DNA of 64,000 nt from a virus (IMGVR_UViG_3300031553_000001:13755-77754), one strand, 5' to 3'; positions 8,731 through 42,519 are shown, counted from the stretch's first letter. Translations and numbers: made by a program. Notes: a model not told the origin generated them from the letters alone.

Positions 8731-8745
8731 GTAACTCCTCCGCTG

Positions 8746-10329: not shown

Positions 10330-10330
10330 C

Positions 10331-10669: not shown

Positions 10670-10744
10670 CCTTATTCTCCTAAATTCCCTAGAAATATAA
10701 GAAAAACAACCAATATAACGGCATATTCGCACAAAAACTTTGAA

Positions 10745-12212: not shown

Positions 12213-12217
12213 ATTTC

Positions 12218-23157: not shown

Positions 23158-23174
23158 CTACTATAGTAAACTTG
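23158..23174 (-). promoter_or_regulatory. Promoter-like motif copy 2, upstream of the Cas7-like gene
   Basis: CAAGTTTACTATAGTAG, then ATTGACAAT, then GGAGG and ATG. Confidence 0.7.
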
Positions 23175-23698: not shown

Positions 23699-24586
23699 TT
23701 ATGCTCCAATATTCCAAAATACCACTGGCTGCTCAAGATGCTCTATATTGTCAATCAACCACAGCCACGCCTTGGCATCATAATACTCATTACATGGAAA
23801 CGGAATATCCGCATTGTCTACTCCGTCTTTGTAGGCATAATTTTCATCTATGAATCGCAAATTGTCGCCTGGAATCACACCAGCCATCTGAGTGATATAT
23901 TTTCTGGCTGCATCTTTGCTTCTGCTATAACCCATATGAGCTAGGATAACCGCTGATTGTTCCCAAGCATTATACAAGCCGCGCACTACACCAGCGCATA
24001 TAGTACCTGAGCTAATAGACACTACCCAAGTACCCTTAGCGTATATATCATCCGGTGTATACGTTCGTGCTTCCATTGCAGTAGCTACTACTGTCTCTTG
24101 CAAACATAACCCATTAGGCATCATCACCCCACGGTCATCAGTCATTTGAGCCAAGACCTTTTTGGCTTGATGATACAAGACACAACTACGTCCTGCCTGC
24201 AATGGAACGATTTGAGCACCTAGATTAGCTGCAACCTGCTGATGCATGCGTATTTTATGGTCAGGAAACCAACCATCGCTAGGCGTGCCTGGCTCCAAAT
24301 ACTCATCCTTGTATACCGGATAGAATACGATGCACTTCAGACCTAGATGATGACACAGATATGCTACTCCTCTGCCAGCTTTGGAGTGATACGTATCCAA
24401 TACACCCATAGTTGTATCATGATTGAATTTTGTCAAATATGATACAACTCCACGAATCTTGGAGAAGTGTGGGCCACTTGGATCAGGACAACACAAATCC
24501 TCGCGCTTAACCCAAACAGGCCAAGTGTCGTCAATATCATACTGTTCCCAAGGCGTATTGTCAATCAACAGACTGTTAGTGTCCAT
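23699..24586 (-). CDS. PLP-dependent enzyme (fold type II); probable hypermodification decarboxylase
   Basis: VWVKRED...FSKIRG, SISSGTICAG, PFPCNEYYDAKAW; clustered with the rSAM and amino acid:DNA transferase genes. Confidence 0.75.
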   Translation of the reverse strand: MDTNSLLIDNTPWEQYDIDDTWPVWVKREDLCCPDPSGPHFSKIRGVVSYLTKFNHDTTMGVLDTYHSKAGRGVAYLCHHLGLKCIVFYPVYKDEYLEPGTPSDGWFPDHKIRMHQQVAANLGAQIVPLQAGRSCVLYHQAKKVLAQMTDDRGVMMPNGLCLQETVVATAMEARTYTPDDIYAKGTWVVSISSGTICAGVVRGLYNAWEQSAVILAHMGYSRSKDAARKYITQMAGVIPGDNLRFIDENYAYKDGVDNADIPFPCNEYYDAKAWLWLIDNIEHLEQPVVFWNIGA

Positions 24587-24740
24587 TCATCTCCCTGCGT
24601 AACTGCTCTTGAGCCAGGATGGCAGCCATCCTGGTTTCTAATGCCCGTTCCTTGAGATATTCGGCACGCCTATTCAGGGCATCAATTTCAGCACGCTTTA
24701 TTCGCTTCCATGTAGCCAAATCAACTTGAGTTATAGTCAT
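24576..24740 (-). CDS. Small helical hypothetical protein (MTITQVD...)
   Basis: AGGAGAGGT RBS; overlaps the PLP gene start. Confidence 0.5.
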   Translation of the reverse strand: MTITQVDLATWKRIKRAEIDALNRRAEYLKERALETRMAAILAQEQLRREMNGH

Positions 24741-24758
24741 GACACCTCTCCTTGTTGT

Positions 24759-24931
24759 GATGGGATGGCACATCCTTTACAGGTATGAATTAAGACGTTA
24801 CTACCTTACGGCACGTCACCAACTTAGACTCAACGTCACTGATATGCCAATACTCTCTACCATCCCTGTCGGGACTGGACGGGTATTGGATTACAGTCCT
24901 TGGCCTGTCACAGTCTCAGCGCCTTCCCATC
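24759..24931 (-). ncRNA. Candidate structured small RNA containing a second 5-nt-periodic tract
   Basis: Starts at promoter motif copy 3; the ends pair (GATGGGAAGGC / GCCATCCCATC); 7 of 8 consecutive pentamers at 24801-24840 carry NGT. Confidence 0.55.
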
Positions 24932-24947
24932 TACTATAGTAAATTTG
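24931..24947 (-). promoter_or_regulatory. Promoter-like motif copy 3 (CAAATTTACTATAGTAG)
   Basis: One mismatch to the consensus. Confidence 0.65.
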
Positions 24948-24955
24948 TTCACGAA

Positions 24956-25029
24956 TGGACTCAGCTGGAATCGAACCAACAACCTGCCGCTTATAAGACG
25001 GCTACTCTATACCATTGAGCTATGAGTCC
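24956..25029 (-). tRNA. trnI: tRNA-Ile, anticodon TAT, CCA not encoded
   Basis: Acceptor GGACTCA/TGAGTCC, D arm GCTC/GAGT, anticodon arm GCCGT-CTTATAA-GCGGC, T arm GTTGG-TTCGATT-CCAGC. Confidence 0.92.
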
Positions 25030-25237
25030 TAACCACATCCACCATCCATAGAATTCCTCGCCAGTACGTTTATCACTAGTATACCAAGATATACCCCAAC
25101 ACCCATTGCAACGACAACGATGGTTCCCATACATACATAACTCAAGGTAATATCTGGAAGCATATTGTCAATCTCCCTCAAATTGTCGTAGTAAGGCTTT
25201 ATACCACTTCAATTGTACACCACAATCCACACAATGA

Positions 25238-27745
25238 TTACTCATACAATAAATCCTCCAAAGTGGGCCATCTATAATGCTCTGCAAACGTTGCATCACT
25301 AGGATACCAATAATATTGATCCTTCATCTTATGCGGCGGAAGATTTGACCCTTCCAATTCCCAGTCTTCATCACATCCACTCAATTCAATAGTTCTCAAA
25401 TCTTTGTACTGTAGTGCTGATGCTTCCAACAACTTATCATTCTTGCAAGCATGAGTACCATACTCAGCACAGTACAGACATCCAGATTCAAAACAACCAG
25501 GCAAAGATTCAAATGGGGCACCCTTCTCTGGCCTATAGAACATGGGAACAGTCTGACCATGACAGCCACCTTTGGATGTGGTATACCACGGCGCAAGGCT
25601 GGAACCGCCCCCACCATCAGCATAGTATTCATAGCACAACGACATTGTCAATCCAACATCACGTGTCCTGTCCAACAAGGCATTAAGCCATTCGATGCGC
25701 ACATCTTGTTGGATCGTATACACGCCGCCTATGACATGATTGAACAGATTGTCAAAGGTGGCCACATGTGGCAGCTTTCTGGAATGCATCCGATCTACGA
25801 TTATTTGTCGGTTGTTAGCTACTTGCTCCACAAATTTGAATATGATATGATGCCCACCATATTCAGACACCAAATCACATAGCAATAGCAAATCATCTAG
25901 TGTGGTTATACCAGCTATTATGGGATTGCATTGGACGCTAATATAAATACCGCTATCAACCATCTCAGCCATATTGTCAAACATGGCTTGTAGTGGTGGC
26001 GCACCTGGGCTGAACCTACTATAGTGGTCTGGGTTTGATGTGTTGATCGACCACTGCATATAGCTGTAAGGATTTTTCAGAAGCGCATCCTGTGCCCACT
26101 CTGGGGCCAACTGTCTGGACAGGTAGAAGAATGGCAAACCAGCATCCAAGAATACTTGAGTGATCTGTTGCGTGATGTGATATGTACTCTCTAATGGATG
26201 GAATGGCTCGCTGAAAGATGTAATGTATCCAGCTCCAGAAACCATCAGATTGTCAATGCGCTTGCGAAAAGCGGCAGGATAGTCAGGATTGACCGTAGGT
26301 AGGCCAGTAGCTCTATAGCCCCGCGTGCCATTATTGATATAGCAATTATGAACCAGTAAGCCATTAGCATAGAAATTCTCAACAGTGGTTTGGATGTCCC
26401 ATACATCTAATGGCTCATCCACACGCTCCATACTCGTCAATTCAGTATACCTAGCGCTTGCAGCTTCTGCATGTTCCATAACTCCAATATGATCCCATCC
26501 ACGGCAAAGGATGTCTGGAATCTCTGGAACCGCGCCTGATCCTCTTCTGGAAAATACCCCTTCACTTCGACAATTTTCAACAGACTGCCTTGTGAATCGT
26601 ACAGATGGAAATCTGGAAGATATACTTCCTTTGAATCCTCCAGAGAATACACCGCCTCCTCGAATATCCAAATGATGTTGTTCGCATCTAGCCATTGCGC
26701 AGTTAGCCACTCCCATTCTGAGCGAAAAGTTATCTTGCAGCCAGATTTCATTGTGTATGGCTTGCGCTTGCTGGTTTTGTAGCCCATCCCGCCGCTGGCT
26801 ATTCTCAAGGCCATATCCTCCCGCCATTTCAATGACCTGGTACATCCTAGAGAATTCTTGTTGCTCCTCAATGTTAATCCTCTTTTGCGCCTTAACTCCT
26901 TGGATTGTGGCTTGCCCTTCAATGGGGATGGTCTGCCTTTGCTTTTGCGTCCCTGCTCCGCACGATGTAGCTGTAGACATGCATCGCATAGCTTCCGATT
27001 GCGTTGGCCTGTAGGTTTGCCACATCGTTCGCACATCTTGGCTGCGTTCATCACATCCGTTTGTGCGCGCCTGGTCTTGTTGGATTTGGCTACGCTTCTC
27101 ACCTTGCGGATATAACGGCACTTGGCACAGTACTTTTTCCATTGCGTTGGATTCTCTATGTTGGCACCGCAATCCAAGCAGTGTTTGTACATGATCTCCC
27201 TCCCTCAATTGATCCACCCTAGCCCATCCAGCATTATCTGTCAGAATTGGGTGATCTCCAGTCACTTTCAAGACATGCCCATCCGCAGTATTCAGTATGT
27301 AGTAGCTCTCCACCTGACGCTTGGATACCGCCAGCACCTCTGAGTCACATAATCCAACCTCAACACGACCATACACCACATCACCCACTAGCAGATTATC
27401 AATGCGTACATCACCATCAGGCGTGGCCACTAGGGCGTCCCCACTAACACAGTGCGCACAATTTATGGGGCAAAACCCACCGTATGGGGTGGTGAGGGTT
27501 GCCTCTGTGGAACAAGGTCTTGGCCTTTTTCTCTTTGGCTCGTGTTTGGATTTATACCATCCTCGTGGATTTGGAGCAGATTTATTGATGATATGCTTCA
27601 TTGGATCGGTATAGACATTGAATGGTTTCGTCTTGCCACCTCTGACCATTGCCAATGGGATTGTCAAATAATGGCCGCGTTCGTCTGTTCCCTGCCCCGT
27701 TGGTTCATGCAACTTATGAAATTCCTGCCGATCTTCGTCTACCAT
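25238..27745 (-). CDS. Radical SAM enzyme (hypermodification-associated) containing an intein; mature protein about 466 aa
   Basis: PYGGFCPINCAH-[intein]-CYIN rebuilds CxxxCxxC; SFSEPF, SINT and NPIIAG motifs. Confidence 0.85.
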   Translation of the reverse strand: MVDEDRQEFHKLHEPTGQGTDERGHYLTIPLAMVRGGKTKPFNVYTDPMKHIINKSAPNPRGWYKSKHEPKRKRPRPCSTEATLTTPYGGFCPINCAHCVSGDALVATPDGDVRIDNLLVGDVVYGRVEVGLCDSEVLAVSKRQVESYYILNTADGHVLKVTGDHPILTDNAGWARVDQLREGDHVQTLLGLRCQHRESNAMEKVLCQVPLYPQGEKRSQIQQDQARTNGCDERSQDVRTMWQTYRPTQSEAMRCMSTATSCGAGTQKQRQTIPIEGQATIQGVKAQKRINIEEQQEFSRMYQVIEMAGGYGLENSQRRDGLQNQQAQAIHNEIWLQDNFSLRMGVANCAMARCEQHHLDIRGGGVFSGGFKGSISSRFPSVRFTRQSVENCRSEGVFSRRGSGAVPEIPDILCRGWDHIGVMEHAEAASARYTELTSMERVDEPLDVWDIQTTVENFYANGLLVHNCYINNGTRGYRATGLPTVNPDYPAAFRKRIDNLMVSGAGYITSFSEPFHPLESTYHITQQITQVFLDAGLPFFYLSRQLAPEWAQDALLKNPYSYMQWSINTSNPDHYSRFSPGAPPLQAMFDNMAEMVDSGIYISVQCNPIIAGITTLDDLLLLCDLVSEYGGHHIIFKFVEQVANNRQIIVDRMHSRKLPHVATFDNLFNHVIGGVYTIQQDVRIEWLNALLDRTRDVGLTMSLCYEYYADGGGGSSLAPWYTTSKGGCHGQTVPMFYRPEKGAPFESLPGCFESGCLYCAEYGTHACKNDKLLEASALQYKDLRTIELSGCDEDWELEGSNLPPHKMKDQYYWYPSDATFAEHYRWPTLEDLLYE
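26345..27451 (-). mobile_element. Intein (369 aa) inserted before the third Cys of the radical SAM motif
   Basis: Block A CVSGDALV, block B LKVTGDHPILT, blocks F/G VWDIQTTVENFYANGLLVHN followed by Cys. Confidence 0.93.
26437..27192 (-). CDS. Putative homing endonuclease nested out of frame inside the intein
   Basis: Own RBS (GAGGGAGG); four CxxC pairs; NUMOD3-like basic segment; PD-(D/E)XK core FRSEWE...YLPDF...IVEVKGY. Confidence 0.85.
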   Translation of the reverse strand: MYKHCLDCGANIENPTQWKKYCAKCRYIRKVRSVAKSNKTRRAQTDVMNAAKMCERCGKPTGQRNRKLCDACLQLHRAEQGRKSKGRPSPLKGKPQSKELRRKRGLTLRSNKNSLGCTRSLKWREDMALRIASGGMGYKTSKRKPYTMKSGCKITFRSEWEWLTAQWLDANNIIWIFEEAVYSLEDSKEVYLPDFHLYDSQGSLLKIVEVKGYFPEEDQARFQRFQTSFAVDGIILELWNMQKLQALGILN

Positions 27746-28082
27746 CTTGCGTCTCCTATCAGTTCCGAATCCGGTGACCGATTCTAAAACTCACTTCAAA
27801 ACCAAGGGTTCCTTGGGGCCATTTCCAAGGCATTTCTTGGGCGCTTCCCGTTTGTGACCCTATATACGCCAATCCGCAAAAACAAGGAGTTTTTTGGCAA
27901 AACTGGGATGAAACCGCCCTATTTGGCCTTAGAGCTTTCTCCCTGTAAATTTCAATATTTTGTATGGATATGAGTCTCTAGCTATATGGGGAACTTCATC
28001 ATCGTTATACAGGTGACTAGCCTTCTCTTTATCTGTCAGAGCATAACGTGGCCCCGCTATAATTCTAATCAAGACCTTGCAT

Positions 28083-28880
28083 TCACTCATCAGGATACAC
28101 CGGCATGAACTTTATCAATTCCTCAGCCAAGTCACCCCAGCCACTCAGACCTTTGGTAACGTGAATGGTGTCGTTGCCCATCGGGTAAAATCCGTAACAA
28201 TGGGCTTTATATTTACACAAAATCGTTTCCACTTCTTGGATGTTCACTGGTCTGTCATCCCAGGGAGGAGCAAGTTTATTGTCAAACTCACCCACCATCC
28301 TGTCACAAGTGACATGTAACTGATCCATCGTTATGGGATAATGCTTGTCGCCATAATCGATCCAGGCTGCGCCTTGGACAGGATCTTTATAGATTCCTAT
28401 CTCACTGTCCGTAAAATCCACTGGATAGCTGAGAACCCGCTCCGCCATATCAGCTATCTTCCACCCCATCCAAGGCCCAAAACCTTTGTATTTCACCACA
28501 TTGTCAAAAACCTCCTTAAATCTGTAATGAGCGCACATATCATCTACTATCCGCTCTGGCTCACCAGCATCTTCCAATCCATTTACCAAATCAAGCGCAG
28601 ATTTGCCATAGAAATACCTGCGTTCCATTCCTCTGGGCCATTTCTCCGCTAAACCCAATCGCATAGATTTATAGAAATGCGATGATTCAGCTATGCGCGC
28701 AGCCACACCACAAGAATAATAACACCAATAAGCCAACAAAAATCTTTCAAACATTTTTCCATGTAACACGCCAGCCATCTCAGCATCCACCAGCATTACG
28801 TATACTGGATCCAGATCGCCTGTGTCAAGAAGATCATTACCAAAATCCTGATAGGACATATCTATTTTTGGCTGTCTCAT
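28083..28880 (-). CDS. Amino acid:DNA transferase (aGPT-Pplase/ADDT, HhH-glycosylase fold)
   Basis: DLDPVY, LLAYWCYY, WPRGMERR, FGPWMGWKIADM-x-ERV, APP...R-x2-NIQEVETILCKYK. Confidence 0.8.
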   Translation of the reverse strand: MRQPKIDMSYQDFGNDLLDTGDLDPVYVMLVDAEMAGVLHGKMFERFLLAYWCYYSCGVAARIAESSHFYKSMRLGLAEKWPRGMERRYFYGKSALDLVNGLEDAGEPERIVDDMCAHYRFKEVFDNVVKYKGFGPWMGWKIADMAERVLSYPVDFTDSEIGIYKDPVQGAAWIDYGDKHYPITMDQLHVTCDRMVGEFDNKLAPPWDDRPVNIQEVETILCKYKAHCYGFYPMGNDTIHVTKGLSGWGDLAEELIKFMPVYPDE

Positions 28881-30040
28881 GATTCCTCACAAGCATGTAT
28901 GATTCTAGCATCAGCAATTTCAAAATACTCTTCTTCAATCTCAATACCAATGAAATCTCGATCAGTATGAATACAAGCTATACCTGTTGTGCCACTACCC
29001 ATAAATGGATCGAGAACGGTGCCGCCGGTGGGCGTCTTGGTTAGCTTGCAAAGGTATTCCATCAAGGCAATAGGTTTGACTGTCGGATGATAGTTCTGAT
29101 GGGCACTTGGATGATACTCACTCCATCCTACCTTCCCTGTATCAGGATCAGCTCTGCGGATTAATTTACTCGTATTCTTCTCAAATCCTTGTCTCTTTTC
29201 CATCCCATCCAGCCCCTCGTTGCGTTCATTTTCGTTGGCCTTGGGACAGTAGAAGTATCGAGCCTTGGCATCGCCAACCTGCTCATCCAATAGCGCGCCA
29301 GCCTCCTCATCGAGGATCAGGTTGGCGGGCCAGCGCCCCAATCCGGCATCCACAAATTCAATATGTTTTCCCACCTCATTTGCCCCACCACTACCGGAGA
29401 AACTAAATGAACCGTGTAGCTTCTGCAGCTTGTCTTTCGTTGGTATCCTCCCTCCGTCGATCCACAGCCCAGCCACGCCCCACTTGAGCGCATTATGTGC
29501 AAACGTGCCGTCACGCGGCTTCATTGCCAGGATTATAGGCTCCCAGGCAGGCTTTAGGCCAGTGCCCCAGCCATCCCAGAGTTTGGCGGCTTCGGTGGTG
29601 GGATGATACTTGTAACCATAATCAGAACGAAACTTCTTCTCCCTAGGCTCATAATCCCCACCTGCATAATTTGCGCCTTGCGATTGTATGCCCAATTTCC
29701 CCGCCGCCTTGTCGATGGCCTTGCTGATATTATGAGATTTCGGAAAGCCCGAACCATACAACCACATCAGACAATCACGGATCACCCAGCCCGCATCTTC
29801 TATCGCACACATTAGTCGATGGTGGGTGCGCGTGCCCCCAAATGCTAGCAGCATCGCCCCTGGCTTGGCTACTCTCAATGCAGCTTTCCAAAATACTACT
29901 CCAGGCACGCCGTGATCCCACTCCCTGCCCATAAATTTGAGGCCATACGGTGGATCCGTGATGACCGTGTCCGCACTATTCTCATCCAACATAGCCATCA
30001 CGTCCAAACAATCACCACAATACAGCGTTGCTTGAGTCAT
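28877..30040 (-). CDS. DNA N6-adenine/N4-cytosine methyltransferase (beta class)
   Basis: TDPPY, HPTVKP, LDPFMGSGTTG. Confidence 0.93.
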   Translation of the reverse strand: MTQATLYCGDCLDVMAMLDENSADTVITDPPYGLKFMGREWDHGVPGVVFWKAALRVAKPGAMLLAFGGTRTHHRLMCAIEDAGWVIRDCLMWLYGSGFPKSHNISKAIDKAAGKLGIQSQGANYAGGDYEPREKKFRSDYGYKYHPTTEAAKLWDGWGTGLKPAWEPIILAMKPRDGTFAHNALKWGVAGLWIDGGRIPTKDKLQKLHGSFSFSGSGGANEVGKHIEFVDAGLGRWPANLILDEEAGALLDEQVGDAKARYFYCPKANENERNEGLDGMEKRQGFEKNTSKLIRRADPDTGKVGWSEYHPSAHQNYHPTVKPIALMEYLCKLTKTPTGGTVLDPFMGSGTTGIACIHTDRDFIGIEIEEEYFEIADARIIHACEES

Positions 30041-30888
30041 ACATCCTCACAAGCGTGTATGATTCTGGCATCTGCGATCTCATAATACTCTTTATCAATC
30101 TCTATGCCAATGAAATTGCAGTCATTTTGCAATGCCGCCAAACCCATAGTCCCAGATCCACTGAATGGATCGAGAACTGTACCGCCTGGTGGACAAATGT
30201 ACCGTGTCCACCAATCAGCGAGCTTGAGTGGCGTACCAGCACCATGACCGTGTGCACCTGCACTAGATCGGCTATTAGAATTTGCAAATGGAAGCAGATT
30301 GTAAGGAGTCACTCCACCACGCCTCTGAGCAGCAGCCATCATACTAGACCGTTTTACACTGTGACCGGATGGGCTAGTAATATGTGTTGCCATTTCACCA
30401 GACACCCTAGCCCTGGCATAATGTAATTTGCTTGCTTCTGCCTCAGTCCATAATACGGCATCTTGGTTCCTACAACATTTGGAATTCCCTGCCCACACAC
30501 ACGCCTTGAGGCTCGGCCGCATGAGACCATGAGATGGTGCGCCTCCCAATGGCAACGTGGTAATATTCCACCACCATACATCCTGTACCATATTCCACTC
30601 ACGACAAACCCAGGCCATAAACTCCCACAACCAGCCACGTAGTTGTCCTACATGTTTAGAATTTGGCTGCAAGATAAATACTGCACTACCAGTCGGCTTG
30701 AGTATACGCCGTATCTCAGGTATTACACCCTCAACAATAAGCGCCCACCACTGATCCGCAGTCCAGTAGCCATAAGACCGTTTGATGTAGGGATAAGGCG
30801 GATCAGTGATCACCACATCCACGCTCTCTGCATCTAATAATGGCAAAATGTCTAGACAGTCACCACAATACAGCGTTGCTTGAGTCAC
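30037..30888 (-). CDS. Second DNA N6-adenine/N4-cytosine methyltransferase (beta class)
   Basis: TDPPY, LDPFSGSGT; termini near-identical to the neighbouring gene. Confidence 0.9.
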   Translation of the reverse strand: MTQATLYCGDCLDILPLLDAESVDVVITDPPYPYIKRSYGYWTADQWWALIVEGVIPEIRRILKPTGSAVFILQPNSKHVGQLRGWLWEFMAWVCREWNMVQDVWWWNITTLPLGGAPSHGLMRPSLKACVWAGNSKCCRNQDAVLWTEAEASKLHYARARVSGEMATHITSPSGHSVKRSSMMAAAQRRGGVTPYNLLPFANSNSRSSAGAHGHGAGTPLKLADWWTRYICPPGGTVLDPFSGSGTMGLAALQNDCNFIGIEIDKEYYEIADARIIHACEDV

Positions 30889-31874
30889 AGCAGGTCTTCC
30901 CCTTCCATCAGATCGTCAATCAAATTGCATATCTCATCATACTCATCATCGAAGATGGCAGGCCAACCATTCTTACGGAACCGCTGCCCAGCAAACTCAT
31001 ACCAACCACCAGAGATTGTCAATGCCTTGGCTAATCTCAAATACTCTAACGCAGCCTCAGCTTCATCCACACCATGACCAAAATAAATTGGTAGGGACAC
31101 GGTACGGAATGGTGGCGCAATTTTGTTCTTGGTGATAGTGGCCTTGGCATAGATACCTATCACACGCTTGTCACCGCGTTTTATCTTCTGGCCCACTTTT
31201 AACATAACTCTAATACTACTGTGAAACCCTACCGCCTTACCGCCAAACGTGGTGACCTTGCTTCCAAACATCACGCCTATGTTCTCCTTGGCCTGGTTGA
31301 TTAACAACACTGCTACATTTTCCTTGGATATAAGCCGTGTCAGCCGTCTCAACCCCTGACTGATAACCCTGGCGTGTGTCAAATATCCCACCTCGCCAGT
31401 CTCTTTGTCCATCTCAGCAGTACTGGACGTGGCCGCCACGCTATCCCACACAATTAGCAAGTCATAATCCGCTTTGGACTTTATGGCCACCTCCATAGTC
31501 TTGAAAACCTGCTCTACTGTATCTGGAGCAGTATACACCAGATTGTCAATATCCACCCCAACAGCTTCCATGATAGGCAGTGACACGGCTGTCTCTGTAT
31601 CAATATACAACGCCACACCACCCTCATCCTGGATAGTGGCGCAGGCTTGGGCTGCTATGAGCGATTTTCCAGTAGATGTATCACCATAGATTTCCACCAC
31701 TCTGCCCAATGGCAAACCACCACCCATGGCCGCATCCAGAAGGTAACATCCCGTAGACAAGAATCCAGTCACCACGCACGGTGATGAGTCATCTGACAGC
31801 CGTGATACCGATGTCGATGCTTGCTTGGCTATATTGTCAATCAGCGTCTGTATAGTCCCTTTGTCGTTTGGCAT
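30885..31874 (-). CDS. recA: RecA/UvsX recombinase
   Basis: GGLPLGRVVEIYGDTSTGKS, YIDTE, WDSVAA, INQ, GGKAVGFHSS, KNKIAPPF. Confidence 0.95.
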   Translation of the reverse strand: MPNDKGTIQTLIDNIAKQASTSVSRLSDDSSPCVVTGFLSTGCYLLDAAMGGGLPLGRVVEIYGDTSTGKSLIAAQACATIQDEGGVALYIDTETAVSLPIMEAVGVDIDNLVYTAPDTVEQVFKTMEVAIKSKADYDLLIVWDSVAATSSTAEMDKETGEVGYLTHARVISQGLRRLTRLISKENVAVLLINQAKENIGVMFGSKVTTFGGKAVGFHSSIRVMLKVGQKIKRGDKRVIGIYAKATITKNKIAPPFRTVSLPIYFGHGVDEAEAALEYLRLAKALTISGGWYEFAGQRFRKNGWPAIFDDEYDEICNLIDDLMEGEDLL

Positions 31875-32022
31875 ACTCTATTTTGGCCTTCCAACTAGCA
31901 TACTTTGGATACAACGGGCACGCCGGACTATTGGGATTACAACCACCAACCACCGGACAGTTTAGACACTCCAAATCTATGTTATATTTATGGGCAGCTA
32001 TCTTTGATCGTTGTCTAGTCAT
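31837..32022 (-). CDS. 61-aa Cys-rich peptide (ECLNCPVVGGCNPNSPACP)
   Basis: Start revised to ATG 32022, 1 nt after the rSAM-SPASM stop. Confidence 0.55.
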   Translation of the reverse strand: MTRQRSKIAAHKYNIDLECLNCPVVGGCNPNSPACPLYPKYASWKAKIEYAKRQRDYTDAD

Positions 32023-32023
32023 A

Positions 32024-33187
32024 TCAGATATGGCGAGCAACAGGACACAACGGATCTGGCGCATCCACATACAAATCCTTGATAGTAGACGTTGGCCGCA
32101 TTCCTGACAGCTTCAAAGCATGCATACGCTGCGCTGGACAACCGGATTTGCAAGATGCCTGATATTTACATGATGCGCACGCACCTTGTATATCGCGCCA
32201 TCCGCCCTCGTGGTATTTTCTCAATGCCAAAAACACTTCGCCATTTTCCCAAATCTCCTGGAGCGATTTGTCCCGCACATTGTCGGTCTCTGGCAACGTC
32301 TTCCACGCTGCGCATGGGTGAACGTCCCCGTGCGGCCTCACCAGAATAAGGTCTGTTCCAGCGTGACACGGATGCATCTTTTCAGGATACTTGGGAAATA
32401 CCGTATGACGAAAGTCAATTGGGCAACCAGCACGCAGCTCCACACGTGGATTATTTATAGTGATGAGATTGTCAATAGTGTATTGCAGCTCTGTAAATTC
32501 AGCCGCGTTGAGCGCCAACTGTCGATTGTTAGCATATCCTCTAGTCTGAGGAACAAACCGCAGCAGGCTCAATTTGGACACACCCATAGCCGAACACATG
32601 CCATACATATTTGCCACATGATGCCAATTAGGTAACATCGGAACCATATGTACTTCCACCTTGAATCCAGCTCTGATGGTGTTGCCAATACCCCACACGA
32701 TGGCGTCATATGCTCCAGGAGTGCCCATCAAATAGTCATTTACAGTACGCAGGTGGCTCTCCAATGAGTATATGAACGTCAATTTGTCCATCGCACCAGG
32801 AATGTGCTTGAATACATTGAGATAGCCATCATACATCCCATTACATCCAACATCAATATTAGACCAATGCCCAGCAAACATATCCTGCCAGGAAATAGGC
32901 TTAAACTGTGCATGAATACCAGTGGTATAGAACAACACCCTCTCAAATCCATATCTGATAGCATAATCCACTACGTCATAGACATTTTTCACAAGGATGG
33001 GATCACCACCAGACAGACTGAGAACTGTCGCGCCCAAATCTCTGGCCTCCCGGATCAGCCTAAATATCTCATCCATGGTCAACTCATCTGGAAGGAACGT
33101 CTTGTTGGAACCAGATGAGCAATGCAAGCATTTCAACAGACATCTATTAGATAACTCGATGGACAGTTCCTCTAGCTGGTATTTCAT
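32024..33187 (-). CDS. Radical SAM protein with SPASM domain
   Basis: CLLKCLHC, SGGDP, C-x-AG...GDVHPC...CASC-x5-C-x2-GCPA...DPLC. Confidence 0.9.
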   Translation of the reverse strand: MKYQLEELSIELSNRCLLKCLHCSSGSNKTFLPDELTMDEIFRLIREARDLGATVLSLSGGDPILVKNVYDVVDYAIRYGFERVLFYTTGIHAQFKPISWQDMFAGHWSNIDVGCNGMYDGYLNVFKHIPGAMDKLTFIYSLESHLRTVNDYLMGTPGAYDAIVWGIGNTIRAGFKVEVHMVPMLPNWHHVANMYGMCSAMGVSKLSLLRFVPQTRGYANNRQLALNAAEFTELQYTIDNLITINNPRVELRAGCPIDFRHTVFPKYPEKMHPCHAGTDLILVRPHGDVHPCAAWKTLPETDNVRDKSLQEIWENGEVFLALRKYHEGGWRDIQGACASCKYQASCKSGCPAQRMHALKLSGMRPTSTIKDLYVDAPDPLCPVARHI

Positions 33188-34035
33188 GACTGGCTACGCC
33201 TTGACCGCCTGCTGCCGCGCTTCTTGCGAATTACATCACGGATGTCACCCTCATCGTCTGGGAATGGGACATCCTTTTCATCACTGCCAGAAGTATCAAG
33301 CTGTGCAAACTCCTGATTCAGCCGGTCATATGGCAGTACAGTAACTACCACATCTGCACCGGCATCCACATCTTCAGATGGGTCATCGCTCAGCTCCATC
33401 GGGGTCAAATCAACTGCCGCTTCCAACCACTTATCCAGCAGATCCTCATCAGGCTCACCCGTTTCACGCCCACGATTATCAACTATACAGGCCAACGGTG
33501 TACGCTTGGGTCTGGCGTTGACGTCATATCTGGTTTCCAGGCCAGTCCCAGTGCGAGTTACAATGATGTCCATTCCATCATACTCGTCGTATATGTCGCC
33601 ATAATCTGGATCACCCACCAAGCCTGCCACTGCCTTGAACACCATCGCACCCGGAGTGTAAATCTGTGGCCCAGCTTCCTCATTGGAACGGTCGATGATG
33701 TTCATCCAATAACTCTTGCGACGAAGCAGCTGCGACGCCAACTCCTTGCTGTCGGCATCACCGGCATTGTACAAATCATTGACCAGCTCACAGATGGGAC
33801 AAGGCTCGCCAATAGTGAACTGCCTACACGTAAATGGCCTATTCCTGGATTTCACATAGTGCGCACCAACATCCTGCCAGAAAAAGTCACCCATCTCACC
33901 AACACCTGGCAGGATGCGAATTACATTTCTACCTGCCTTGGCTTTCCAATAGTTTCCACCTCCGCCAAAGGACTCTGCTGCCAGCTTCTTGCGTATCACG
34001 TCCAACAGCTCTTGTCGATCTTTCCTGTCTGCCAT
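33184..34035 (-). CDS. Single-stranded DNA-binding protein (gp32-like)
   Basis: NVIRILP, H...C...CPICE, YWMNIIDR, G-x-D-x-IVTRTGTGLETRY, acidic tail. Confidence 0.8.
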   Translation of the reverse strand: MADRKDRQELLDVIRKKLAAESFGGGGNYWKAKAGRNVIRILPGVGEMGDFFWQDVGAHYVKSRNRPFTCRQFTIGEPCPICELVNDLYNAGDADSKELASQLLRRKSYWMNIIDRSNEEAGPQIYTPGAMVFKAVAGLVGDPDYGDIYDEYDGMDIIVTRTGTGLETRYDVNARPKRTPLACIVDNRGRETGEPDEDLLDKWLEAAVDLTPMELSDDPSEDVDAGADVVVTVLPYDRLNQEFAQLDTSGSDEKDVPFPDDEGDIRDVIRKKRGSRRSRRSQS

Positions 34036-34068
34036 TGTGCATATCCTCCCTATCAGATTATCAATCCA

Positions 34069-34085
34069 CTACTATAGTAAACTTG
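34069..34085 (-). promoter_or_regulatory. Promoter-like motif copy 4, upstream of the SSB gene
   Basis: CAAGTTTACTATAGTAG, then ATTGATAAT, then GGGAGG RBS. Confidence 0.7.
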
Positions 34086-34088
34086 CTG

Positions 34089-34550
34089 CTAACCACGTCT
34101 TCCACTTTCCATATCAGTCATATCATACTCGTGGCGCAGCTGTGCACCCATAGATTGTAGCATACTGGCACGCTGTTCAAATGCTCTGGATAAATCTCGA
34201 AGCGTGTGAAACTTGTGCAATGCTACATCCTCTTCCTCACGCGCAACGCTCACCTCCTCATCTATATCCACTAGCTTGGCAGCAGTCCCATCACTCACAG
34301 ATCGGCTGCCATCAGGGATGGATTCTTTGTCATTCTTGTAGAACATATAGGCACTGGCCTCAGACTCTTTACGTTGCCGTACACAATCCAACCAGGCCAA
34401 CTCCGCTGACGATGTCATGGTGGCAAAGTATGCGTACCTAGCCGCCTGCGCTGCGAACTCATTAGGTAGATCAGCCTGATCCACCTCCAACAATTCCTTA
34501 ACTGACAGATCCTTGTCAGCTACTTTCACATTTACATCAAGATTTAACAT
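34089..34550 (-). CDS. UvsY-like recombination mediator (putative)
   Basis: All-helical 153 aa with L-x2-EF-x2-Q...AFEQR-x2-ML; next to SSB. Confidence 0.55.
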   Translation of the reverse strand: MLNLDVNVKVADKDLSVKELLEVDQADLPNEFAAQAARYAYFATMTSSAELAWLDCVRQRKESEASAYMFYKNDKESIPDGSRSVSDGTAAKLVDIDEEVSVAREEEDVALHKFHTLRDLSRAFEQRASMLQSMGAQLRHEYDMTDMESGRRG

Positions 34551-34551
34551 T

Positions 34552-34896
34552 TTATGGCCATCCTTTCTCTAGTCTTTCCAATTCACGATCCTGCTCTTCA
34601 ACAGGGTATACTTTCACAGCTCTCCCAAAACGTATATACAAATTTCCCAATTCAAACACTTCCGCTTCATTAGCACCAATCATATTCAAATAGTATCTAA
34701 TTTCTTTGACAGCATTTATTACTCTTGTTGTCAAAGGTGGCTTTGCGTTTACAACATCATCCTTGTATGAGCGTAACGATGCACGCAATTTCTCACTTTC
34801 CTCCTCCCGGATAGCTTTACGCAACATATCTATCTTCTGTTGTCCCTCCTCCTCTGTTAATTCCTCTTTATCTGGAAATGTGTAATCCATTGTCAT
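34552..34896 (-). CDS. Hypothetical protein
   Basis: AAGGAG RBS; fills the gap. Confidence 0.55.
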   Translation of the reverse strand: MTMDYTFPDKEELTEEEGQQKIDMLRKAIREEESEKLRASLRSYKDDVVNAKPPLTTRVINAVKEIRYYLNMIGANEAEVFELGNLYIRFGRAVKVYPVEEQDRELERLEKGWP

Positions 34897-34904
34897 TCTC
34901 CTTT

Positions 34905-37505
34905 TCAGAATGGTATATGTACTTCACCAGCCAAATTTAGCTTTTCCATAGCTCCATAATGGCTGCCAACGTCTACATCCGCGTTCAACGGACAGATTAG
35001 CCAACTCATGTCGATGTTTGGCATCCACTCAGCACCATACTTCACCACATTCTCCATTACATCCACGCACAGCCCAGCTACATCTAGCAATTCACCAGGA
35101 TACACATCAAACACTATAGAGTCATGCACAGTGTTCACTATCTTAGTATGCCAACCCCGCTCCAGCATCAGATTGTCAATGATTACCAGGGCCATCACCG
35201 TAATCAAACCGGCTGCGCCCTGCACAGGCGTGTTGGCTGCCTCACGCTCAGCATGCTTGCGCCTGGATTGCTCTGGTGCATCTATATCCGATAATGGCCG
35301 CCTGTTTCCAAATGGCGTTTCAATGTAGCCATTCTTACGCGCAAAGCGCACACATTCCTTCTGGAATTCCAGCACCTCTGGGAATGCTGTGTAGTACTGT
35401 TCTTTTATGAGCTTTCCCTCCTTCAATGGAATGTCATATAGCCGCTCTAGCGTATACTCTGAACCACCATAGAGCATAGTCCAATTGGTCCATTTATATC
35501 TATACCTCTCTGGTTTTGTGATCTGGTCATAGGGCTTACCGCTCACCATAGCCCCAACCATTGTATGGAAATCCCTGCCACTACGATGGATTTCCAACAT
35601 AGCCTCACATCTGGCTAGACTAGCAAACACCCGCAGTTCCATACCGCTGTAATCCACAGACATCACATAGCCGTCATTCACATCCAACTCCAGATTGTCA
35701 AACCACCTCCAGTCTGTTGGGATACCTGGAACATACTCGTATTCCTCACCATTTTTGTTAGACCACGTATGGGTAAACATATTCTTGATCGGCAAACATT
35801 CCATCATCGTGCCTGGCTCCTTCTCTGGCACTGGAATGTTCTGTAGATTGGGATTACTAGATGACAGCCTGCCCGTCACCACAGTATGTTGACCAAACGA
35901 TGACCTTATACGTCCATCTGAAGAGGATGCGTATACACCAGTGGCTGTAGGTGTTATGTATGTACCCAACATCTTTTGGTACATTCCATACATTATCAAA
36001 TCCGCCACCAGTGGGCACTTATCCTTGTAGATTTCCAAGAATTCGCGTTTGGTGGACGGATTTCCAGAATCCGAAAAACCTTGCGGTTTGAGATTATACG
36101 AGTACTGAAGTGCATCCTTGCGCCACTCAGCAGATTTGGCCCACTTGCAATATTTACCACCGTATAGCACCCAAGCTTTCTGCTGCCAGCTTCCAGGATT
36201 GAATTTGAATTTCTTGGAAGCTTTATGTCGGCATTCCACATAGCCTTTGACCATTGGATTATTGTCAATAGCCTCCACAGTGTCCATCATCTCAGCAGTA
36301 TACACGCGCCTGTACCGCTCTGCCATATAGTAATCCACTGCCAAGCCATTGCACTGCATCCGCGCAATAGTGTTTGATGCAGGCACAAATAGCTCATCAT
36401 ACAAGACTTGCTGCTTGGAAGTCAGTTTACTATACAACAATTTCTCTAGCTGAAATGTGGCTGCCGCGTCCTTGGCAGCGTATGGCAACAGGACATCTAG
36501 TGGAACCTGAGAATAGTTGATCTTGTCACTCTTGGCTACGTAACTCTTGAGCTCTTTGTCGTACTCGAACATCCCCAGATAGTACCCTGCCAGCCGTTTC
36601 AAACCATGTAAGCCAGTCTTGGATTCATATAGAAATGACGCCAACATCGAATCGCCTTGGGCATCAAACTCAACGTCCAACAAGGCTTTGCATTGCATCT
36701 GGTCGAATTTGATGTTGTGACCAATGATGTGAGGATGAGATTCTAGAACATTACACATCATATCCAAGGCACCGTCGGATAAAGGTGCCAAATCACCTGG
36801 ATGATCCACAGGCACTGCCCAGGCTGTATCTGCTGTGGCAAATGACATAACCAACAAGCGCTGATTATTGTCAAAAGCATCCAATGAATTCACTTCTGTA
36901 TCAAACGCTATGACAGGGGATGCCATCAAGGCCACACACATATGATATATTCCTGGCTTGGAATATACGAATTCGTAGTCATATTCTTGGTCTGCTGATG
37001 GAGCAACTCCACTACTCCAAGCGTTCCAAGCTTCCTCTATTCCTTGCAACCACGTATTTGTGGCTGATTGGTTGCGCAGAATGTAAGCCGGATGGAACAG
37101 TGGCACGTATATTACCCCGTCACGCTCCACTACCACCCCATTCCAGGAAGTGATGCCAGATTCTCCAAGTACCGCCTTCAATGGCGTGTTGCCAAACAGA
37201 AGTACCATCTTCGTATTGGATTTGATGGGCAACGACTGGTAGCAGCATTTAATGTATTTAGGCTTTATCTTGTTGCCTGGGGGATGACACCTGACTATGT
37301 TGGTATATGTAATAGGTGGAAAGCCAAACGACTCTAACGCAGTGCGCAGTAGCTTACCAGACCTACCCACAAATGGCTTGCCCTGTTTATCCTCTTCGTC
37401 ACCTGGCGCCTCCCCAACTGCCAGGATTGTATAGTCACCGCCATCGTCCGGCACTGGACCATTGGACAGCTCCAACAGACCGCACTTCTTGCAATCTGGT
37501 TCCAT
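34905..37505 (-). CDS. polA: Family A DNA polymerase with N-terminal UDG-like domain and 3'-5' exonuclease
   Basis: GEAPG/HPAY (UDG); FDTE, HNIKFD, YAAKD (exonuclease); TGRLSSSNPNLQNIP, DYSGMELR, K-x2-N-x3-LYG, VHDS (polymerase). Confidence 0.95.
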   Translation of the reverse strand: MEPDCKKCGLLELSNGPVPDDGGDYTILAVGEAPGDEEDKQGKPFVGRSGKLLRTALESFGFPPITYTNIVRCHPPGNKIKPKYIKCCYQSLPIKSNTKMVLLFGNTPLKAVLGESGITSWNGVVVERDGVIYVPLFHPAYILRNQSATNTWLQGIEEAWNAWSSGVAPSADQEYDYEFVYSKPGIYHMCVALMASPVIAFDTEVNSLDAFDNNQRLLVMSFATADTAWAVPVDHPGDLAPLSDGALDMMCNVLESHPHIIGHNIKFDQMQCKALLDVEFDAQGDSMLASFLYESKTGLHGLKRLAGYYLGMFEYDKELKSYVAKSDKINYSQVPLDVLLPYAAKDAAATFQLEKLLYSKLTSKQQVLYDELFVPASNTIARMQCNGLAVDYYMAERYRRVYTAEMMDTVEAIDNNPMVKGYVECRHKASKKFKFNPGSWQQKAWVLYGGKYCKWAKSAEWRKDALQYSYNLKPQGFSDSGNPSTKREFLEIYKDKCPLVADLIMYGMYQKMLGTYITPTATGVYASSSDGRIRSSFGQHTVVTGRLSSSNPNLQNIPVPEKEPGTMMECLPIKNMFTHTWSNKNGEEYEYVPGIPTDWRWFDNLELDVNDGYVMSVDYSGMELRVFASLARCEAMLEIHRSGRDFHTMVGAMVSGKPYDQITKPERYRYKWTNWTMLYGGSEYTLERLYDIPLKEGKLIKEQYYTAFPEVLEFQKECVRFARKNGYIETPFGNRRPLSDIDAPEQSRRKHAEREAANTPVQGAAGLITVMALVIIDNLMLERGWHTKIVNTVHDSIVFDVYPGELLDVAGLCVDVMENVVKYGAEWMPNIDMSWLICPLNADVDVGSHYGAMEKLNLAGEVHIPF

Positions 37506-38501: not shown

Positions 38502-38687
38502 TTCAAATCTCCTTTATCGGCCTTTTCAAGGTTAATGTGCTCTATTCCTATGCTTCTTCTTTCGGAAATAAGTGCCTGAAACAACAAGCCGGTTTGATCC
38601 ATCAACTCCACTGCCTGTTGTTTCAGACTCTTCGCCTCCACCAGCAATGCAGTTAGCTCGGCATACAAAGTCTGTTGCTTTGTCATT

Positions 38688-39821: not shown

Positions 39822-40294
39822 CGCAAGAACTCCATTATCTCAGCCACATCTATGCCTGTAACATTGGACCATACCTCTTCCACCCATCTCTCCACATCCT
39901 CCGGTCTCTCAGCAGCTATCCAATCCAGCCACATCAGACAATACAACGATATGTCTACCAACAGATCCACAAACGCCAAATGTATCTCATCAGTAGCCAA
40001 CCTGTGACCAGACATTACCACTTTGGCAATGCCATCAAGCTTCTCAAGTCTATCAGCCAACTGGCCATACCGGTCAGACTTCCTCATTACATTGTGATAT
40101 ACTCCAGCCTCACCACGCTTGGCCCAGCTACGTCCATACTGAGAATCCTTATGCATGTGATATACCAACAGCAACGAAGCCAGTTTCACCATCGGAATAG
40201 GGTATGGATCGTCACTTGCATCCGCACACATAGTCATGGCAAACTGCGGCATGTCATCAGACACTTGCGCAATCATTTCCTCAAGGTTAATCAA
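39818..40294 (-). CDS. Nucleotide-modification-associated helical domain (DUF1599/Nmad1-like)
   Basis: K-x3-YG-x-SW-x2-RG-x2-G...RK-x-DR...D-x3-D-x3-Y. Confidence 0.65.
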   Translation of the reverse strand: MINLEEMIAQVSDDMPQFAMTMCADASDDPYPIPMVKLASLLLVYHMHKDSQYGRSWAKRGEAGVYHNVMRKSDRYGQLADRLEKLDGIAKVVMSGHRLATDEIHLAFVDLLVDISLYCLMWLDWIAAERPEDVERWVEEVWSNVTGIDVAEIMEFLR

Positions 40295-41846
40295 TTTTCA
40301 CTCCATTATCCACGTATACATACTGATTGCATCCTTTATGTGGCCCAGTTGGCACCTTGGTCATGCCAAGCTTGTATTTGGGCAAATCTGGCACCTCCCA
40401 CATTGGAACATAACTTAAATCAGCCTTGGTTGTTGCATTCATCACATCCCACACAAGCGCACTATATTTATCCATCAAGACGCCAGCATACCGTATCATA
40501 TATCGTGGTATGTCATTTATGCCACGATGATAGTAAAACCAAGGCAACCACTCGCCATATAGAATAGAATTCAACATATCACAGTCCACCCCAACCGCTT
40601 CCATCGAATAGATGCGTTGTTTTGGATACCTGCAAGGCAGACCTTTTATTACATCACATCCACCTGTGCGATGCACGCACACGGGACAGTTGCCAAGCCC
40701 TATCACATATCTATTATCAAAGTGTTTCAGTAAACGCATTACGTACCAGCTGGTAATAGAATCTGTGCAAGACCCACGCATATATGTGTTGCGGTTACCG
40801 GAATACTCAATCGCCCAAGCCATATCCACGGACACAGTAATGATTGCCAGCGTATCCAAGGATGGCCTAATGGCATCAAACCTAGGTGCGCACCCTGGGC
40901 AACCGCCGTTCATACCCTTGCACGTACCACACGCCGTGGCCTGTTCCCACTCCGTCAACAACGGTACATCGCCACGTTTCAGAACGTGCATATGAACCAG
41001 CAGACTTAGAATATTTCCAGTACTAGTCTTGTAGCCCACATTCCAATCATACACTCTGCAATTGGTTATATCAGATCCAACTTTGTCGCTAACGTCTGCC
41101 CATGGCCCCCACTCGGATGGTTCCAATATCTCAGATCTGGATGTAATCTCTATATCAGGCACTAAGGCTGCCAATTCATTCCTGGCTCGTACATTGTTCT
41201 CATACTCTATTCCCACCACAGCCGCCCACACTTTGACTTCTCTGTTGGACAACCGTACCACATCCATATATGACTCAAGATTGCCAACAGCTGATAGGAA
41301 TTCATACAACATATCATCCCTGGTGACACTATCCACATCAATCCAGCGCACATACGTTTGGTTATAGCTCTCGGCATGTCGAACTATGCTTTCACATTTA
41401 TGTGTGATATTGTCAACATTAATTCCACGTGGCTTGGATGACTTCCTATTCCTTATCCGTCTTAGACACCCGTCCACCGATGCCTTCAATATCACAAACA
41501 TCGGTTTGATACGATGTGATACCTCCAACTCCAATAGGAAATTATAGAATGTGGATTTGATGGTGGAGATCATCATACCTTCAAACAGCACATCACAATC
41601 TGGATGATTATCAATAGCATCCATGATAGCTAACTTGACATTGGCCACATTACTACCACCAGGCAACTTATCACAACCATTACTGGTTCGCGTGCTCAAA
41701 TCATAGTGCCCCACCAACACCCACCCAAAATCGTGCAGCACCGTATTCCACTGCTCCACTTCTATATCACAACTAGCCGCTACCATCTGCAGGGGAATAG
41801 TAGACTTTCCAGATCCATTGCTGCCTTTGATTTGAACCACTTTCAT
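40287..41846 (-). CDS. P-loop 5hmU-DNA-kinase-like domain fused to a DUF2284-like Cys-rich metal-binding domain
   Basis: IKGSNGSGKST...GHY...GCD...LFEG; C-terminal CGTC...CPGCAP...GNCPVC...CRYP...SMEAVGVD. Confidence 0.7.
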   Translation of the reverse strand: MKVVQIKGSNGSGKSTIPLQMVAASCDIEVEQWNTVLHDFGWVLVGHYDLSTRTSNGCDKLPGGSNVANVKLAIMDAIDNHPDCDVLFEGMMISTIKSTFYNFLLELEVSHRIKPMFVILKASVDGCLRRIRNRKSSKPRGINVDNITHKCESIVRHAESYNQTYVRWIDVDSVTRDDMLYEFLSAVGNLESYMDVVRLSNREVKVWAAVVGIEYENNVRARNELAALVPDIEITSRSEILEPSEWGPWADVSDKVGSDITNCRVYDWNVGYKTSTGNILSLLVHMHVLKRGDVPLLTEWEQATACGTCKGMNGGCPGCAPRFDAIRPSLDTLAIITVSVDMAWAIEYSGNRNTYMRGSCTDSITSWYVMRLLKHFDNRYVIGLGNCPVCVHRTGGCDVIKGLPCRYPKQRIYSMEAVGVDCDMLNSILYGEWLPWFYYHRGINDIPRYMIRYAGVLMDKYSALVWDVMNATTKADLSYVPMWEVPDLPKYKLGMTKVPTGPHKGCNQYVYVDNGVKID

Positions 41847-41868
41847 TTTGAATTTCCCACTAAAACCT

Positions 41869-42519
41869 CTAAGTACACGCTGTTGGATACCACAATGATA
41901 TATCCTCTACAAACATGTGGATTATCAAATCTGCCTGTGATCTCCATCCAAAGTCATCAAAGGGTAGTTCAATCCAATCCTTCGGATCCAAATGCATAGC
42001 GGCAGCACGTATTAAGCGTGTGGACGATTCATACTCCAACTTATGTGGAGTCCAATACTTTTCAGCATATATACGATGACTCAAAACAGCACGCTTACGT
42101 AATGCCTGCTCCATATATTCGGCTGTGGTAGTGATTATTATCATAAACAACCCACCACCCATTTCCAATGGAACGTGCTTGATATGATGAAATATGCTTC
42201 CCCAGAATCTCATACCTTCCGCTATCCAAAGCGTTTCTCTGTCACATACCATATATCGTATTAGTTCTTGTTTACCAGGCAATGTCCTGTATACATCATA
42301 TAAAGCAGGAAATTCTGGAATATTGTCATAGTTTGGTGTCAACATATCACCAAACACTTTACGAATGCCAGGAATATCCAATGATTCCAAATAGGTGGTC
42401 TTACCCGTACAATGAGTGCCATAGATGCCAATCAACATAGAATAACCCCAATAGAAATGAAAAATGATGGGGTAAAGATGGTGCCTGGGATGGTGGATTG
42501 TCATTTCATCCGGTGGCAA
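41869..42519 (-). CDS. Second P-loop kinase-like protein; likely start ATG at 42438
   Basis: IGIYGTHCTGKTT...IAEG...LRKR. Confidence 0.6.
   Translation of the reverse strand: MPPDEMTIHHPRHHLYPIIFHFYWGYSMLIGIYGTHCTGKTTYLESLDIPGIRKVFGDMLTPNYDNIPEFPALYDVYRTLPGKQELIRYMVCDRETLWIAEGMRFWGSIFHHIKHVPLEMGGGLFMIIITTTAEYMEQALRKRAVLSHRIYAEKYWTPHKLEYESSTRLIRAAAMHLDPKDWIELPFDDFGWRSQADLIIHMFVEDISLWYPTACT

Follow-up and report, generated by a model that had tools for sequence, protein, structure and literature searches.

A complete phage genome with the finishing enzymes of M6-type thymidine hypermodification and no recognisable TS- or TET/JBP-type source of 5-hydroxymethyluracil

The viral genome IMGVR_UViG_3300031553_000001 encodes, as far as sequence comparison can tell, all four enzymes that finish thymidine hypermodification in phages M6 and YuA, each with its catalytic motif intact. 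Neither of the two enzymes known to start such a pathway, a thymidylate synthase (TS)-like dUMP hydroxymethylase or a TET/JBP dioxygenase, is detectable in its 77,754 bp. To our knowledge, every characterised thymidine hypermodification begins with 5-hydroxymethyluracil (5hmU) made by one of these two enzyme types; as both are absent, the first step is probably taken by an undescribed iron-sulfur enzyme. The most far-reaching reading is a third, oxygen-independent route to 5hmU in DNA, in which a DUF2284 enzyme, possibly together with a radical S-adenosylmethionine (rSAM) enzyme of the SPASM class, would oxidise the thymine methyl group and pass the product to a kinase fused to it; we put its probability at about 0.3. 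The stretch analysed here (the window) comprises 64,000 nucleotides, bases 13,755-77,754 of the record, and coordinates are window positions unless marked as genome positions. The genome is complete (127-bp direct terminal repeats; CheckV completeness 100%), carries nearly all of its genes on the minus strand, and is matched in its kinase region by reads from several salt-marsh metagenomes.

In M6, a 5hmU kinase, a glycine-type transferase, an rSAM enzyme resembling spore photoproduct lyase (SPL) and a pyridoxal phosphate (PLP)-dependent enzyme finish 5-(2-aminoethyl)-dU (5-NedU) (PMC8989533). The original prediction, made from the window alone, had summarised the pathway in terms consistent with that paper, and the genes that it named were all recovered where it had placed them, on the minus strand, by Pfam, PHROG and NCBIfam scans and, for the Nmad1-like gene, by profile-profile comparison (Table 1). 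For direct identity comparison we used the Yuavirus phage Lydia, a relative of M6. The 5-hydroxymethyl-dU DNA kinase (HMUDK) domain, which forms the N-terminal ~200 residues of a 519-aa protein (40287-41846, minus strand), is 26% identical to the Lydia kinase (2e-8) and has the Walker A motif GSNGSGKS. The transferase is 37-38% identical to the YuA/M6 gp51 family (37% to Lydia) and keeps the conserved E-x-E-x-x-L-C motif in alignment with M6 gp51. The PLP enzyme is 47% identical to its Lydia counterpart and contains the SKIRG lysine motif.

The SPL-like rSAM enzyme is interrupted by an intein; each of its two exteins is 36-39% identical to the Lydia rSAM. The intein lies within the CxxxCxxC motif and its junctions are intact (CPINCAH/C...VHN/CY, with canonical Cys1, HN and Cys+1), so that the +1 Cys would double as the third cluster ligand; the motif should be restored only by the predicted splicing. 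A 251-aa open reading frame (ORF; 26437-27192) overlaps the intein on the same strand in a different frame. Collectively, the orthology of the four enzymes to those of Lydia (26-47% identity) indicates that the finishing part of the M6 pathway is present, its genes being scattered across 19 kb among replication genes. The final base is expected to be the M6-type hypermodified thymidine, 5-NedU. The alternative that a different base is modified, which had been raised with the original prediction, is unlikely because all four enzymes are conserved with these motifs.

To search for the missing first enzyme, we ran six-frame hidden Markov model (HMM) searches over the whole genome, and Pfam scans of ~70 individual ORFs. 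No candidate was obtained for TS (PF00303), ThyX (PF02511), TET_JBP (PF12851) or dCMP deaminase (PF00383), nor for 2OG-FeII_Oxy_3 (PF13640), C5 DNA methylase, GidA/TrmFO or dUTPase. Likewise, the Lydia TS used as a tblastn query against the whole genome gave a best E of only 2.4, and the per-ORF scans yielded no further plausible C1-transfer or oxygenase enzyme. The absence of TS, dCMP deaminase and TET/JBP genes reported for the window is thus confirmed for the complete genome, at the level of sequence detection. It had been proposed that the source gene lies in the segment outside the window; genome positions 1-13,754 turned out to hold sugar, tail and toxin genes, and the whole-genome six-frame searches were empty, which refutes this option. 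A dUMP hydroxymethylase elsewhere in the genome, singled out beforehand as the finding that would speak against the idea, was found neither with PF00303 nor with the Lydia TS.

Positive controls performed as expected. The TS search detected the genes of Lydia (6.6e-20) and M6 (5.5e-20), and in identical searches TS homologues were found in 24 of 24 other phages (Lydia, nine cultured phages and 14 from IMG/VR) at 1e-12 to 1e-27. The TET_JBP search recovered phage examples from 1.9e-28 to 6e-6, the latter being a Gordonia phage CloverMinnie gene (20.9 bits) beside the transferase. Among ten diverse cultured phages that carry the transferase, nine encode TS, and in the tenth a TET_JBP-like gene adjoins the transferase. 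Twenty transferase-bearing IMG/VR contigs of at least 30 kb gave a similar picture, with TS in 14 and TET_JBP instead in three; the sole complete genome among them with neither is a relative that we call G011 (G and L numbers label related IMG/VR contigs and loci). Nine of the ten complete IMG/VR genomes with a transferase have a TS or TET/JBP gene, G011 being the exception, and no TS, TET_JBP or dCMP deaminase match was found in its complete sequence.

These controls bear on the explanation that an enzyme of known type is present and too divergent to detect, be it a TS-fold hydroxymethylase, a minimal 5-methylpyrimidine dioxygenase or another oxygenase in unannotated ORFs. No family could be assigned to about ten ORFs of 190-520 aa, the head and tail ORFs (368-10732 and 58352-63955) lay outside the per-ORF scans, and phage TET_JBP-like genes may fall below the Pfam cut-off, as the CloverMinnie score illustrates. 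However, the TS genes of 24 other phages scored clearly in the same search, the Lydia query found nothing convincing, two independent complete genomes are both empty, and the unannotated ORFs common to both look regulatory or of low complexity. We therefore consider that a cryptic enzyme of this kind has only a slim chance of being the answer.

The comparison with G011, the second complete genome (77,500 bp, with terminal repeats), bears on what may replace the missing enzymes. G011 carries the pathway as a contiguous cluster in the order transferase (59% identity), rSAM (59%, no intein), a 262-aa protein without assigned function, PLP enzyme (54%), second kinase, HMUDK, a separate DUF2284-like ORF, a small uracil-DNA glycosylase (UDG)-like gene, an Nmad1-like gene and a UDG-fused family A DNA polymerase (PolA). 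The finishing enzymes are 54-59% identical between the two phages, versus mostly 24-45% for other shared proteins, which points to selection for function. The DUF2284-like and SPASM families were found only in G011 among the 20 transferase-bearing IMG/VR contigs; SPASM is absent from all ten cultured transferase-bearing phages, and the DUF2284-like domain from 50,697 GenBank phage records. Thus, among all transferase-bearing genomes examined, the two families occur only in the lineage without TS and TET, a distribution that would be expected for non-orthologous replacement of the 5hmU source. G011 also contains, between gp32 and the SPASM gene (25935-35375 of G011; L055 5935-15375), an 11-gene sugar-nucleotide and glycosyltransferase block, including NTP transferase, hexapeptide acyltransferase, PIG-L deacetylase, TOD1-like and GT2 genes, which the phage studied here lacks.

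The same comparison argues against a supply from outside. It is conceivable that the host, a co-resident element or a redirected host TS supplies 5hmU or 5hmdUMP, that the enzymes have another substrate, or that the cluster is non-functional. No source was found in either complete genome, as such explanations would have it, and a kinase with a nucleoside monophosphate (NMP) kinase fold beside HMUDK could serve a nucleotide-pool route. Against this stand the signs of selection on the finishing enzymes, with their intact motifs, and the fact that every other phage examined encodes its own source; we know of no cellular pathway that supplies 5hmdUTP. We regard this family of explanations as improbable, and consider it fairly probable that the phage encodes some 5hmU source that is neither TS nor TET.

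Of the two candidates in the genome, the DUF2284-like domain is our first choice on account of its fusion to the kinase. Seven Cys residues are conserved across 73 DUF2284-like sequences, and homologues of the domain carry PF10050. A search of 1.8 billion proteins returned 48 representatives at E<1e-10; these homologues are ~310 aa long, several with an N-terminal extension (three confirmed as PF18748 kinase fusions), others standalone. Besides this phage, at least two more 90%-identity clusters for which PF18748 matches were precomputed have the fusion to HMUDK (P0005, P0007 and P0009). Where the domain is not fused it keeps similar company: the gene adjoins HMUDK in G011, the transferase and Nmad1 in L006, Nmad1-like and PolA genes in L008, and a homologue of the small UDG in L009 and G011. 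Taken together, the comparative pattern and the proximity to the kinase favour the suggestion, already part of the original prediction, that a SPASM rSAM or DUF2284 protein may make the precursor. That the DUF2284-like domain itself is the 5hmU source is a tentative proposal.

Structure prediction produced a confident model of the domain (AF2, pLDDT 88) with no clear fold in the PDB. An ESM Atlas structure matched it with a TM of 0.87 by target and the nearest clusters were all DUF2284. Sequence searches of the PDB with the DUF2284 profile gave no match, and Foldseek of the model against PDB and BFVD returned nothing at E<0.001. The genomic neighbourhoods of cellular DUF2284 genes were considered as a functional clue and set aside as uninformative (phosphate transporter, PhoU-like, adenylosuccinate synthetase and one URO-D gene). 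At L010 (56-6243), a standalone DUF2284-like gene lies among genes for a GT1 glycosyltransferase, an epimerase, a DegT aminotransferase, a UDP-glucose dehydrogenase and a methyltransferase, which suggests that this first step can also lead into a sugar-type modification.

With TS-type carbon transfer and the oxygen-dependent TET/JBP route excluded, we propose an oxygen-independent two-electron oxidation of the methyl group, and the near absence of nucleotide-pool genes favours formation of 5hmU from DNA thymine after replication. A lineage-specific iron-sulfur enzyme would then act on thymine already in DNA. In this scheme the DUF2284-like domain would oxidise the thymine methyl group by two electrons, removed as hydride or as electrons within its iron-sulfur protein, to give an exocyclic 5-methylene intermediate; water would capture this intermediate to yield 5hmU, handed directly to the fused kinase. 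The kinase would phosphorylate 5hmU in DNA, the transferase would exchange the phosphate for glycine through its Cys/Glu site, the SPL-like rSAM enzyme, active after intein splicing, would rearrange the glycine adduct, and the PLP enzyme would decarboxylate the product. The gene content, the orthology and intact motifs, the lack of known sources across the genome and the comparative pattern are observed; the chemistry and cofactors of the first step, the idea that DNA is its substrate and the nature of the final base are inferred. The salt-marsh habitat is a further point in favour of this scheme.

The features on which this proposal rests are listed with their neighbours in Table 1.

Table 1. 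Genes and domains discussed in the text, with their positions and the matches that identify them.
Feature	Position	Strand	Evidence
PLP-dependent enzyme, M6-type decarboxylase orthologue	23699-24586	minus	Pfam PALP 3.4e-11, 43.5 bits (cut-off 35); phrog_7093 1.8e-73
SPL-like rSAM enzyme, M6-type isomerase orthologue	25238-27745	minus	phrog_9252 4.4e-81
Intein in SPL-like rSAM	26345-27451	minus	Intein_splicing 3.4e-12
Amino acid:DNA transferase (ADDT; aGPT-Pplase clade 2)	28083-28880	minus	PF18724 1.3e-15, 58 bits (cut-off 26)
5-hmdU DNA kinase (5-HMUDK), P-loop domain	41250-41846	minus	PF18748 4.6e-11, 43 bits (cut-off 27)
DUF2284-like Cys-rich (iron-sulfur type) domain, residues 200-519 of the 519-aa kinase fusion	40287-41249	minus	PF10050 28.5 bits (cut-off 25)
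rSAM enzyme with SPASM domain	32024-33187	minus	PF04055 5.9e-11; PF13186 3.9e-8; TIGR04085 44.7 bits (cut-off 27)
Second P-loop kinase	41869-42519	minus	Walker A GTHCTGKTT; likely start Met28 (42438), giving 41869-42438, 189 aa
Nmad1 (DUF1599)-like helical protein, 158 aa	39818-40294	minus	hhalign 98.6%, E 6e-16, to PF07659-positive L005 and L006 proteins
Family A DNA polymerase with N-terminal UDG	34905-37505	minus	UDG 1.5e-20; exonuclease 1.7e-20; DNA_pol_A 4.8e-70
Small family-4 UDG-like protein	23161-23559	minus	PF03167 6.4e-14; TIGR00758 4.7e-17, below cut-off
Two tandem N6/N4 DNA methyltransferases	28877-30040 and 30037-30888	minus	PF01555 2.4e-30 and 1.5e-24
Three GT2 glycosyltransferases, methyltransferase, RmlD-like reductase, ADP-ribosyltransferase, BNR protein	genome 1-13,754 (outside window)		

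Several observations weigh against assigning the first step to the DUF2284-like domain. A literature search found no function assigned to DUF2284 and no biochemical precedent for it. The fold neighbours obtained in a wide VIA-align search (MetH activation domain, CblD/MMACHC, nitroreductases and QueG, all cofactor binders; Z 4-6, best 5.9) are a weak lead and not evidence, as model matches with Z<6 carry no meaning alone. The kinase-fused iron-sulfur domain could merely bind DNA or play a structural part, as such domains do in family-4 UDGs. Three kinase-bearing fragments of relatives, all incomplete, show no DUF2284-like gene (G004/G005, 20-23 kb; G006, 7.4 kb; L005, 13 kb), and the SPASM gene is present in kinase-bearing fragments of this sort. 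The complementarity with TS and TET comes from a single lineage and so represents effectively one evolutionary event, which is equally common to the SPASM enzyme and cannot separate the two candidates. Finally, UDG-fused polymerases like that of this phage otherwise occur in phages making 5hmdUTP before replication (bioRxiv 10.1101/2025.03.26.645540).

The other candidate for the 5hmU source is the SPASM enzyme. Its 5'-deoxyadenosyl radical would take a hydrogen atom from the methyl group of DNA thymine, its auxiliary clusters would remove the second electron, as in enzymes of the anSME/BtrN/AhbD type, and addition of water would give 5hmU, the DUF2284-like domain then serving as a redox partner or kinase accessory. 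Radical SAM chemistry can activate the thymine methyl C-H bond without oxygen, spore photoproduct lyase being an example. The protein has the features of its class, with both the rSAM core and the C-terminal SPASM domain matched, and its nearest named families (AhbD, NirJ/NirJ2, MftC and PqqE) all perform two-electron oxidations. It belongs to a widespread group (>100 clusters at 40-56% identity, many on contigs of ~70-82 kb), and nine of 11 related IMG/VR loci keep the replication-module order PolA-u153-gp32-(variable genes)-SPASM-RecA, the gene lying in another context at L051 and L053. HMUDK is its immediate upstream neighbour in G004/G005, L043 has the transferase after SPASM-RecA, and, as set out above, among transferase-bearing genomes it is confined to the lineage without TS and TET. 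A search for a conserved precursor peptide gene beside it found none.

On the other side, the gene abuts the 11-gene sugar and glycosyltransferase block in G011, glycosyltransferases are present in this genome too, and L005 has the kinase with no SPASM gene between gp32 and RecA. The family matches are all far below their cut-offs: no curated SPASM subfamily threshold was reached, the best being AhbD (109 bits versus a cut-off of 500) with others lower, and BtrN was not among the PDB sequence matches of the enzyme. We consider it unlikely, if a serious contender, that the SPASM enzyme is the source, and retain the kinase-fused DUF2284-like domain as the preferred candidate. At the SPASM-RecA junction a 77-aa Cys-rich ORF (31837-32070) is unique to this genome, relatives having unrelated small ORFs or none there. 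A 79.5-kb contig among the Logan/ENA homologues holds both DUF2284-like and SPASM genes.

Several neighbouring genes accompany the cluster in relatives. Homologues of the second kinase lie directly upstream of HMUDK in L004, G011 and L047; a word-based homologue search with this protein returned only itself. Its model matched adenylate/NMP kinases in Foldseek (2e-5) and is mediocre (AF2 pLDDT only 67), so that a dNMP kinase and a DNA-base kinase are inseparable. The polymerase combines UDG, 3'-5' exonuclease and PolA in one chain, placing it in the class of UDG-fused polymerases of T-modified phages (bioRxiv 10.1101/2025.03.26.645540), and its closest cultured relatives are Bacillus phage polymerases, including those of SPO1-like phages, SP-10 and CP-51. 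Together, this polymerase and the NMP-kinase fold of the second kinase leave room for a pre-replicative nucleotide route. The gene at 39818, called Nmad1-like in the original prediction, has no Pfam match at E<0.01; the profile comparison in Table 1 points to a resemblance to PF07659-positive proteins. In L008 and G011 a homologue sits immediately upstream of PolA. The tandem N6/N4 DNA methyltransferases are likely a separate protective modification with no route to 5hmU.

Two further ORFs conserved upstream of the cluster in relatives, 43717-44310 (197 aa) and 42557-43285 (242 aa), were rejected as enzymes and look regulatory or of low complexity. At L005 (11-4808), an ADDT-like gene occurs with myo-inositol-1-phosphate synthase, FkbM methyltransferase, dual-specificity phosphatase, HMUDK, HMUDK helical domain and Nmad1 genes, a set that may make a different, undescribed thymidine adduct. 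Outside the window, at genome positions 3827-12224, an ADP-ribosyltransferase toxin domain and a BNR-repeat protein adjoin a block made up of three GT2 genes, one for a CmcI-type methyltransferase and one for an RmlD-like reductase; DNA, virion or host surface are all possible targets of these sugars. The sole other nucleotide-related gene (14248-14697) encodes a nucleoside 2-deoxyribosyltransferase-like protein (PF15891, 5e-18) and has no G011 counterpart. Two paralogous DUF3626 proteins (11140-11976 and 12218-13048) are encoded in the head-proximal region, and two very large ORFs without a Pfam family (58352-61555, 1067 aa; 55881-58352, 823 aa) weakly resemble the first two ORFs of G011 (28-31%).

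Two complete genomes of one lineage thus combine the finishing enzymes with neither known starter and offer two concrete iron-sulfur candidates for the first step. If the proposal is true, it would add an oxygen-free hydroxylation of thymine in DNA, provide the first function for the DUF2284 family, and explain how thymidine hypermodification starts in viruses of anoxic habitats that lack a TS homologue and TET/JBP. The enzyme could also become a tool for site-directed DNA functionalisation and 5hmU chemistry, and its recognition would make it easier to predict which uncultured viruses of anoxic sediments have modified, restriction-resistant DNA. Literature searches on DUF2284, and on SPASM combined with 5hmU, turned up no account of a case without TS and TET.

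Among known systems, the closest is the 5-NedU pathway of the Yuavirus phages M6 and YuA (Lee et al. 2018, 2021; PMC5889632, PMC8989533), which shares the four finishing enzymes and a UDG-family gene nearby. The TS-homologue dUMP hydroxymethylase of M6 and Lydia has no counterpart in this phage, which differs from M6 further in the kinase-DUF2284 fusion, the intein in the rSAM, the spread of its genes over 19 kb, and the added SPASM rSAM enzyme and second kinase. TS-less metavirome contigs have been described only with TET_JBP next to thymidine hypermodification genes (PMC8989533), a class covered by the phage T-dioxygenases (bioRxiv 10.1101/2025.08.14.668559), and we observed this arrangement in G016, G018, G019 and Gordonia phage CloverMinnie. 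Such contigs resemble this phage in carrying kinase and transferase genes and no dUMP hydroxymethylase, an absence implying that 5hmU is made from DNA thymine after replication. In contrast to them, this genome and G011 give no TET_JBP or other 2OG-oxygenase signal, and the enzymes proposed to stand in, both of the iron-sulfur type, would work without oxygen. Phages of the SPO1/SP10/SP-15 type, which contain hmU, have a related family A polymerase, and the UDG fusion of SP15-like polymerases is common to this phage. They also encode a dCMP or dCTP deaminase, a dUTPase and a TS homologue for pre-replicative synthesis of 5hmdUTP, whereas dCMP deaminase, dUTPase and TS are absent here. Cellular DUF2284 proteins (PF10050), predicted to bind metal and found in anaerobic bacteria and archaea, share the Cys pattern and fold of the phage domain; they are ~185-215 aa long, whereas the phage branch, at ~310 aa, has extra N- and C-terminal elements and resides in base-modification clusters.

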